The notes under the pieces were generated by a model. It ran no database searches, was not told the origin of the DNA, and was given only the letters and a program-made list of their open reading frames with translations. The translations under genes were made by a program, and so were the position numbers. Shown here piece by piece: positions 895 through 3,669 of a stretch of 64,000 nucleotides of DNA (the stretch's first letter is position 1; each line of letters starts with the position of its first letter). Location of the stretch: NCBI RefSeq assembly GCF_013122565.1, contig NZ_CP053258.1; one strand, given 5' to 3'. Source of the stretch: Escherichia coli. GTDB taxonomy: Bacteria; Pseudomonadota; Gammaproteobacteria; Enterobacterales; Enterobacteriaceae.

Positions 895-2322
895 TCATGC
901 CAATGGACTCATTACCCTCTGCCTGAGTAGTTCAAATCCAGCTTGACCATACATCTGGCGTTTGAGCATCTTCAGGCGATTTACATGACTTTCGACAACA
1001 CCATTACTCCAGCGACTGCTGACTGCCTCACATATAGCCGCAGCATCGGCTTCCATCACCGCAGCCACGCGCCGAAGTTCTGCTGAATCGATTTCGTGGA
1101 CTCGAGTGAACCAGCTGCTTAGCCGTGATTTAGTTTGGGTTTTCAGAATACGGTAGAACTCTAGTGCCAGTTGATGCGCTATTTTCAGCTCCGGTTCTTT
1201 TTCACACATCAGACTAATAAATCGGGAAGCATAATTTTCTTCACCCCTGATTATTCTCCAGGGCATCAACCAGCGGCTTACCCGGTACACTGAAAGAAGT
1301 CTGGCAGCAGTAGTCACCAGCGGGATCCAGCCTTTACGCCATTTGGCAACAGCATCCCTGACGATGTTTTCACTGCCTGTAACCCCCCGGGTCACCATTT
1401 CCCGCATATCCGGCTGGCATTATAATTACCACTTTCTCATTGCTCTTTTAACCACTCCCTCCAAGGGTCCAGAAGTCCTCGCTTTGGAGGCCGGGTTGAC
1501 ATTTCAGGGAATGTTCCTGAACGCGCCCAGCGACTGACTGTCACTCGCGACAGGCCTGTAATACGGGATATTTCCCTGAAACTACATCCCTTGTTATGCA
1601 GGGCCATAACCTCTGTCCAACGCTGATGCCGTTTTTTGCGGATTTGCTGTTTAAGGCGTTCCGGACGACGGAGCGATGCTGCAGGCACAGACAGTTCTGG
1701 CTCAGGTGATTTCTTTGGTGACAACTCACTGGCAACAAGACGTATCAGATGCCTATGTCTGTACATCAATCGTTCAAGCGCATCGCCAATATTTTTTAGC
1801 AGATGCTATCGATCAGCCACCTGTCTGACCTGAGGTGCACCTTCACGTGCTGCTGTCGCATAGGTTCCACTGCGATCACGCGAGACAACCTGTATTTCCG
1901 GATATTTTCTGAACCAGGTCGCCAGCGTACGCTGATCGCGGTCGGGAAGCAGGACAGTGAGTATCAAGATTGACTATTAACGTACCGTAACGGTGGCCCC
2001 GATGCCACGCCCACTCATCAATACCGACATGGGGTGAGCCTGACAGTTTCGTCTCCGGGGTATTGATAACTCTGCGAAGAAGAGTATCTGCACTGCAACA
2101 GAGACCCACTGCCGTTGCTGCCCGTTTTCCAGCCTCACCTCCAGCTATTAATCCCAGTTGACGTTGTAAATTTTGTAACGCCTGTGAAGACTGCTGGTGT
2201 GAACCAGCGAAGGGAGTAAGCGACTCGGCAAAAATTTTACGTGAACAAGCTGGGTTACGGCAGTACCAGTGGCGGGCGGAAAATACAAGCCATAGCGTCT
2301 GCCCTGTGTTGAATATTGGCAT
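895..2322 (-). pseudogene. ISL3-family transposase, disrupted (three collinear same-strand fragments 1876-2322, 1437-1769, 895-1407 in different frames)
   Basis: N-terminal fragment has zinc-finger-like YCRNPACSRK and GIDEWAWHRGHRYGTLIV; C-terminal fragment ends NGVVESHVNRLKMLKRQMYGQAGFELLRQRV, the typical ISL3 transposase tail; frame breaks between fragments. Confidence 0.5.
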
Positions 2323-2541
2323 GCAAAAAATTGGATTGCGCTCGCGCCCTTAATTACCCGGCGATGGGGAATAAGCTTCATCAGCCGTTGTCCCCGGGTG
2401 TAGCGTGCACAGTTGCATATCATTCTCAGACGAACCGATGGCTGGAGGGATGGTCGCCGCAGCCTGCCATGAGACTGTAATTAAAATTGTGTAATTGCCT
2501 GTTTTTGATATGTTCACTCCAATAACGGAGACAGGCAAATT

Positions 2542-3669
2542 ATGGACGAAAAGAAACTCAAAGCACTGGCGGCTGAACTGGCTAAGGACCTTAAAACCGA
2601 AGCCGACCTCAATCAGTTTTTCCGTATGCTGACGAAATTAGCCGTCGAAACAGCGCTCAATGCGGAGCTGACTGACCACCTCGGACATGAGAAAAATGCG
2701 CCAAAAACAGGTTCAAACACCCGCAATGGCTACTCGTCAAAAACGGTGTTATGCGATGATAGCGAGATCGAACTGAACACGCCGCGTGACCGTGAAAACA
2801 CCTTCGAGCCGCAGCTGATTAAGAAGCACCAGACGCGCATTACTCAGATGGACAGCAACATTTTATCCCTTTACGCCAAAGGCATGACTACCCGAGAAAT
2901 CGTCGCCACCTTCAAAGAAATGTCCGACGAAGATGTGTCACCCACGCTGATATCTAAGGTCACCGACGCGGTAAAAGAACAGGTTACTGAGTGGCAAAAC
3001 CGACAGCTGGATGCGCTGTATCCCATTGTTTACATGGACTGTATCGTCGTAAAAGTCCGTCAGAATGGGAGTGTGATAAACAAGGCCGTCTTCCTGGTGC
3101 TGGGGATCAATACCGAAGGCCAGAAAGAGTTGCTGGGCATGTGGCTGACCGAAAACGAAGGCGCAAAGTTCTGGCTGAGTGTGCTGACGGAGCTGAAAAA
3201 CCGTGGCCTCCAGGACATTCTTATAGCCTGTGTGGACGGTCTTAAGGGCTTCCCGGATGCGATAAACAGCGTCTTCCCGCAGCCCCATATCCAGCTGTGC
3301 AGCATCCATGTGGCGCGTAACAGCCTGAAATACGTGTCCAAGAAGGACTACAAAGCCGTCACCAGCGGCTTGAAGACTGTCTATCAGGTCCGGACCGAAG
3401 AGGCGGCACTGATGGCGCTCGATGCGTTCGCGGAAGTCTGGGACGATAAATATCCGCAAATCAGCAAAAGCTGGTATGCGCACTGGGAAAACCTCAATAC
3501 GCTCTTCAGTTATCCGCCGGATATCCGCAAGGCCATCTACACCACGAACGCAATCGAATCGCTTATCAGTATGATCCGAGCTGCGATTAAGAAACGCAAA
3601 GTGTTCCCGACGGATGACTCGGTACGAAAGGTTATTTATCTGGCGACCAAAGATGCGTCGAAAAAATAG
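2542..3669 (+). mobile_element. IS256-family (IS1414-like) transposase gene, 375 aa, apparently intact
   Basis: Full-length ORF with mutator/IS256-type architecture; DNA around 3285-3330 resembles the IS1414 segment that overlaps astA in other strains; element ends not determined. Confidence 0.75.

Follow-up and report, generated by a model that had tools for sequence, protein, structure and literature searches.

Three nested insertion sequences (IS), all of them dead, occupy positions 846-3793 of the 64-kb stretch of Escherichia coli DNA analysed here (the window), between a yfjJ-like and a yfjI-like gene of a CP4-57-type genomic island. On one side lies a minus-strand gene (91..585) whose counterpart in a syntenic genome is annotated by PGAP as 'YagK/YfjJ domain-containing protein', and on the other a YfjI family (DUF3987) gene, also on the minus strand (3841..5367; PF13148, E=3.8e-67; PGAP 'YfjI family protein'). 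Beyond the yfjI-like gene are found an AlpA-type regulator (5392-5733), then, toward the integrase, a 616-aa protein with no family match, the P4-type integrase (9160-10251) and ycdU. No tRNA was found at the island end within positions 1-20000.

Three broken elements in the integrase-proximal part of an island

The first-pass annotation described an IS pile-up at the island end, spanning 895-3669. The pile-up is real and holds three IS copies, one more than had been noticed. It does lie in the integrase-proximal part of the CP4-57-type island, but ~5.4 kb from the integrase and hence inside the island, not at its very end; likewise, the two coordinates match the ends of open reading frames, while the elements themselves span 846-3785 and, with the target duplication, reach 3793. 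A syntenic stretch at 99% identity is present in three complete E. coli genomes (PapRG-06-5, A30 and JNE23-001), and in PapRG-06-5 PGAP lists three pseudogenes at this locus (ISL3, IS3 and IS256 family transposases, the IS3 one being a 156-bp fragment). The locus is in this sense already known, its three genes being listed as pseudogenes in near-identical genomes, and the region is an ordinary graveyard of three broken IS inside an E. coli genomic island.

The ISL3-family copy (846..2306, minus strand) carries a transposase pseudogene, as had been suggested when a decayed ISL3 transposase was noted here. Over 846/861-2306 it is 94.5-94.6% identical (megablast, blastn) to an intact 1764-bp element with a 539-aa transposase on plasmid NZ_CP010124 (L006), and its three minus-strand ORF fragments (895-1407, 1437-1769 and 1876-2322) match PF01610 (E=4.7e-15, Pfam) and NF033550 (NCBIfam). 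An ISL3-type transposase (DDE_Tnp_ISL3) and homology to an intact element thus place it in the family, whereas a second terminal inverted repeat and an intact ORF are gone. The copy has lost its 5' end, comprising one terminal inverted repeat, the region upstream of the CDS and 199 nt of coding sequence, so that homology to the reference CDS sets in at its nucleotide 200. What remains is broken by two deletions (8 bp near 1957, 1 bp near 1406) and by two stops in frame, at codons 236 (~1806) and 359 (~1437) of the reference. The surviving terminal inverted repeat (TGTCACGAACGGTGCAAAAGTGGCTCTTCCGCAACTTGGGTGGA, 846..889) matches, in reverse complement, the repeat at the opposite end of the reference at 43 of 44 nt. 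PGAP describes the syntenic gene as 'ISL3 family transposase; frameshifted; internal stop; missing N-terminus'. The element is common in E. coli: 3,327 of the 5,426 genomes contain matches, most of them 90-95% identical. No clear 8-bp target duplication was seen around the reference copies, and one end of the window copy is deleted.

The IS3-family piece (2308..2464, plus strand; homology and PGAP) is a 157-bp internal fragment, truncated on both sides, from the region where orfA and orfB overlap; it had been overlooked in the first-pass annotation. It is 88.5% identical to nucleotides ~300-456 of the 1229-nt orfAB of an IS3-family element that is very common in E. coli and, since only this internal part of orfAB is matched, both of its edges are deletion junctions. 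An orfA/orfB transposase with its ends is absent, these 157 internal bp being all that is left, and PGAP describes the syntenic piece as 'IS3 family transposase; internal stop; missing N- and C-terminus'.

The IS256-family element and its transposase

The third element (2471..3785, plus strand) is an IS256-family IS of 1315 bp which, from full-length alignments, is complete at the DNA level and carries a dead transposase gene. Its 29-nt terminal inverted repeats (2471..2499 and 3757..3785) are complementary at 76% of positions, and it is bracketed by two identical copies of an 8-bp target-site duplication, CCTGCCAT, at 2463..2470 and 3786..3793. The same GAG...CTC ends and 8-bp duplications are found in six related copies (ISEc39 of LF82, the copies of GmM077 and of a dog isolate, one on a K. 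pneumoniae plasmid and two of IS1414), and the limits of the element and its duplication are therefore secure. Family membership follows from the imperfect inverted repeats of ~25-30 bp with a length of ~1.3 kb, the 8-bp duplication and a Mutator-type DDE transposase (PF00872, 374 bits against a cut-off of 21; NF033543, 404 bits against a cut-off of 150). A megablast search of 5,426 complete E. coli genomes for the empty site (2308-2470 joined to 3794-3950) found none unoccupied and matched only the two halves, in three occupied genomes, so that the target duplication and the ends constitute the whole of the evidence for insertion.

Identity to the window element, full-length or over the CDS, is 96% for a Salmonella Bareilly plasmid copy, 91% for the GmM077 copy (itself frameshifted), 88% for a dog E. 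coli element, 85% for an element of Y. pestis pFra that we take to be IS285, 84% for ISEc39 of LF82 and 72-73% for IS1414. The last figure corresponds to 72.1-72.8% for two copies, including the one on p948 of ETEC H10407, in which astA is annotated. Judged by these identities, the element belongs to an ISEc39-like clade of the IS256 family and is not IS1414. By ISfinder convention, copies receive the same IS name at ~95% nucleotide identity or more, a level that the comparison with IS1414 does not approach; on the same scale the window element would be named apart from ISEc39 and together with the Salmonella Bareilly plasmid copy. PGAP names elements of the window type 'IS256 family' only, and a protein search returned thousands of intact 402-aa relatives at 93-95% identity from Salmonella, Enterobacter, Citrobacter, E. 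fergusonii and Klebsiella, all named simply 'IS256 family transposase'. No intact copy of the same IS was found in E. coli complete genomes, where only the three syntenic pseudogene copies exceed 95% and the frameshifted GmM077 copy comes next. The nearest intact-looking copies are on Salmonella plasmids (96%), the Salmonella copy having no target duplication and a 9-bp deletion.

The transposase gene (2542..3750, plus strand; PF00872, E=9e-112; NF033543, E=6e-121) has 402 codons and is interrupted at codon 376 by TAG (3667..3669), where all relatives have TGG (Trp). What had been taken for an apparently intact IS256-family transposase adjoining the ISL3 remnant is the 375-codon ORF at 2542-3669: the family and the adjacency are right, but the gene is not intact, since 26 further codons (SMPIQNWRLAMSRFIIEFGDRLSDHL) lie in frame between the TAG and the normal stop at 3750. 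A single TGG>TAG difference in a frame otherwise unbroken up to that stop could in principle reflect a sequencing or assembly error, or be read through, leaving the gene effectively full-length. The same stop is however present in the independently assembled PapRG-06-5 genome, which shows that it is no base-call error, and the corresponding gene there, at 99% identity, is annotated by PGAP as a pseudogene with 'internal stop'; as many missense changes at invariant sites also argue for a real loss of constraint, we give this explanation next to no weight.

Differences from the closest copy, that of the Salmonella Bareilly plasmid, were polarised with the help of three further intact relatives. 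The branch leading to the window carries 21 nonsynonymous against 7 synonymous changes, a ratio of ~3:1 as expected absent selection. Thirteen missense changes (G74S, Q106N, Y128S, A130E, A186V, A203T, I254S, M257V, V258A, W267K, N342I, V344M and I369T), together with the nonsense codon, fall at positions that are invariant in seven intact relatives, out to ISAs3 (66% identity). That the element is nonetheless active and intact, with a working 375-aa transposase, would be in keeping with its undamaged inverted repeats and target duplication, with an ORF spanning positions 9-373 of the 379-position Pfam model and with the retained motifs holding the catalytic DDE residues (YMDC, CVDG and AIES). 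Nevertheless, all intact relatives, from IS1414 to ISAs3, conserve the 27 C-terminal residues that are lost here, four of the 13 missense changes lie in the QLCxxHxxRN core, beside W267K, each of the three carrier genomes holds a single copy, and the window and PapRG-06-5 copies, 98.9% identical, already differ by 9 amino acids. We therefore regard an active element as very improbable: the uninterrupted ORF that autonomy calls for is lacking, and the gene is, as far as its substitutions tell, a pseudogene drifting without constraint.

The segment homologous to astA

Positions 3257..3373 (plus strand) are homologous to astA, the gene of the EAST1 enterotoxin, and overlie the conserved transposase core DGLKGF...QLCxxHxxRN in a frame offset so that each of its codons opens with the second base of a transposase codon. 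The segment translates as MR-stop-TASSRSPISSCAASMWRVTA-stop-NTCPRRTTKPSPAA-stop, and the peptide ISSCAASMWRVTA-stop, pointed out previously in this side frame at about 3280-3330, is indeed present at 3287-3328, within the part aligned to astA. Here blastn gives a gapless alignment of all 117 nt with 87 identities (74.4%, E=4e-17). The astA query sequence matches 'IS256-like element IS1414 family transposase' loci at 100% and coincides with the astA feature on ETEC H10407 p948. The similarity to IS1414/astA, the absence of which had been proposed as the way to refute a relationship, is thus real, both for the segment and for the element as a whole (72.8% over all 1315 bp).

Whether the segment is the decayed remnant of a once-functional astA on an IS1414-type element is a separate matter. 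Such an origin would account for the alignment over the full length of astA, for the homologous ATG and for the residues held in common with EAST1 ('SS.A..W..TA' of ISSCAASMWRVTA against ASSYASCIWCATA). However, the identity of the segment to astA is about that of the whole element to IS1414, so there is no special similarity to astA, and the element that carries the segment is far closer to a different clade (84-96% identity). In the largest survey, 35 astA types were described, all associated with IS1414 and all within 12 of 117 nt of the prototype (PMC12585946), against 30 of 117 nt that differ here; by the definition of Ooka et al. 2025 (PMC12585946), under which astA is called at 90% nucleotide identity or more to a known variant across 60% or more of its length, the segment is not astA, and megablast with astA finds nothing in the window. 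Nor is there a second candidate elsewhere in the 64 kb: megablast detects no genuine astA or IS1414, and blastn returns only the 74% match at 3257-3373. The four cysteines of EAST1 (Cys17, Cys20, Cys24 and Cys27), stressed in the astA survey for their two disulfide bridges (PMC12585946), are likewise absent, their equivalents being Ser, Arg, a stop and, after that stop, nothing.

The earlier statement that a start codon is lacking needs amending, as the astA-homologous ATG is present at 3257-3259, although the frame is closed all the same and no ATG-started frame of 38 open codons exists: codon 3 is TAA (transposase GCG-ATA-AAC) and codon 24 is TGA (AGC-CTG-AAA). Both stops are found in every ISEc39-clade copy examined, including the intact ones from Salmonella, dog E. 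coli and Y. pestis and ISEc39 itself, and the frame was therefore closed before the window copy decayed. Among four intact clade members, 19 of the 22 variable sites in the astA-equivalent segment are third codon positions of the transposase (second positions of the astA frame), whereas all six changes on the window lineage fall at transposase positions 1-2; selection has accordingly acted on the transposase frame only, and was later relaxed in this copy. Late missense changes of this kind turned an ancestral peptide ending in ISSCASSIWCVTA-stop into the one ending in ISSCAASMWRVTA-stop. Given these observations, we hold descent from a functional astA to be highly improbable, and the suggestion of an astA-like remnant is not supported.

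The peptide at 3287-3328 is instead best regarded, from the comparisons above, as a family-level by-product of transposase homology, its resemblance to EAST1 arising because astA in IS1414 overlaps the homologous, most conserved core of a related transposase. For the same reason—the astA frame overlies the most conserved motif of the family—relatives at ~72-75% identity will look 'astA-like', and a resemblance to EAST1 by blastn or peptide inside any IS256-family transposase does not amount to a toxin gene. The present locus should be scored neither as astA-positive nor as an astA pseudogene.

History of the locus and comparison with known elements

Taken together, the data make it very probable that the whole region consists of three non-functional IS copies nested in the yfjJ-like/yfjI-like intergenic space, with the EAST1-like peptide representing out-of-frame transposase core and no toxin gene existing now or before. 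In the order of events that we propose, an ISL3-family element would have inserted first and an IS3-family element would then have landed in or beside it, after which deletions may have cost the ISL3 copy its 5' end and reduced the IS3 copy to 157 internal bp. An IS256 element of the ISEc39-like clade would subsequently have entered the junction by ordinary DDE transposition, duplicating the 8-bp CCTGCCAT, and its transposase would have been lost by TGG>TAG at codon 376, with neutral drift since. Since the target duplication (2463-2470) straddles the end of the IS3 homology (2464), the IS256-like insertion is likely the latest, after the deletions that produced the IS3 fragment; the timing proposed for the deletions in the ISL3 and IS3 copies is likewise a reconstruction.

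At present no activity is expected from anything in the region. Having intact ends, the IS256-like copy might at most be moved by a transposase supplied in trans. The 2.95 kb of IS DNA now separating yfjJ from the co-oriented alpA-yfjI genes may have uncoupled their transcription. A pile-up of this type is a routine marker of island decay, and yields a small relative chronology of IS insertions.

The comparison also bears on the origin of astA itself. It is about an even chance, on sequence comparison, that astA originated in the IS1414 lineage as an overprint of the conserved transposase core, the alternate frame having been close to a gene beforehand in relatives, and that the window element offers a sister-clade snapshot of the pre-astA state. 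In keeping with this, most ISEc39-clade copies have a homologous ATG, which spans the Asp-Ala codons GAT-GCG; in a K. pneumoniae relative the frame would open with the removal of one stop and one change in the start codon; and ISAs3 has an ATG followed by 34 open codons in the astA-equivalent frame. The outgroups for the claim that the frame was never open are a small sample (one K. pneumoniae element, IS1414 and ISAs3) and, given also the open frame of ISAs3, the claim applies to the ISEc39-like clade copies compared and is only tentative for the state of the frame deep in the family. If true, overprinting would concern the IS family and not the function of the window locus.

Compared with known elements, the ISL3-family copy resembles that of NZ_CP010124 in its 94.6% identity over 1.46 kb and in keeping one terminal repeat, and differs from it by the truncation at the transposase 5' end, the two deletions and the two stops. 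With IS1414 the IS256-family element shares the family, the length (1315 bp against 1314), the architecture of the ends and the 8-bp target duplication, and its positions 3257-3373 are positionally homologous to astA in the same relative frame; in contrast, nucleotide identity is only 72-73%, the alternate frame is closed at codon 3 (TAA) and codon 24 (TGA), the cysteines of EAST1 are absent, and the segment does not reach the 90% identity at which astA is called. The closest resemblance is to the ISEc39-like clade (ISEc39 of LF82, the Y. pestis pFra element, and unnamed elements on plasmids and chromosomes of Salmonella, E. coli and other enterobacteria), with which it shares the 1315-bp length, a Mutator-type transposase of 402 codons, 84-96% identity, GAGACTGTAATTAAAATTGTGTAATTGCC / GGCAGTTACACA.AATTA...ACAGGCTC ends, 8-bp target duplications and the closed alternate frame, and from which the window copy departs by its nonsense codon and its many substitutions at invariant residues.

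Rarity and gene content of the island variant

When 5,426 complete E. coli genomes were compared at megablast level, sequence corresponding to the 3' end of the yfjI variant and its downstream spacer (3794-3950 and 2308-2470) was matched in only three, and the window differs from those three by about 1%, backbone genes included. Taken together, these sequence comparisons indicate that the island variant carried by the window is rare.

Comparison with the syntenic genome PapRG-06-5, which is elsewhere colinear with the window, showed that it lacks a stretch of about 700 bp (10434-11144) containing, on the minus strand, an ORF (10542-11051) for an IS200-like Y1 transposase (PF01797, E=5e-38). 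This transposase gene lies with the island integrase on one side and ycdU on the other. The integrase of PapRG-06-5 is broken by an IS3-family element, whereas the integrase ORF of the window (9160-10251) is uninterrupted. A plus-strand ORF encoding 616 aa (5711-7561) adjoins the alpA-like gene; it has no Pfam match, and its counterpart in the syntenic genome is annotated solely as 'hypothetical protein'.

Downstream of ycdU, and with no relation to the IS pile-up or the astA question, lies a cluster (11330-25456) for which the syntenic genome gives annotations of ACP S-malonyltransferase, beta-ketoacyl synthases, acyl carrier protein, a FabZ-like dehydratase, ABC transporter parts and a lipoprotein-sorting protein. 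The cluster has the appearance of a biosynthesis locus for lipid or polyketide-like products.

Nearest relative of the IS256-family element

The nearest 'intact' relative of the element in the window is a copy on the Salmonella Bareilly plasmid pCFSAN001140 (201-1506). This copy has lost 9 bp in frame and lacks a target-site duplication, and its own branch carries eight nonsynonymous changes versus one synonymous, suggesting that it may itself be undergoing decay.

The astA-homologous frame in relatives

In ISAs3 from Aeromonas salmonicida plasmid 5, the astA-homologous frame has an ATG and 34 open codons, reading MPLPWSIPRPRCNCVSSIWSATRCAMSPGRTTRR up to the stop, and in the IS1414-like element of Klebsiella pneumoniae pSCM96-1 it contains a single TAA, with ACG replacing ATG. 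The astA frame is thus almost open in several relatives.
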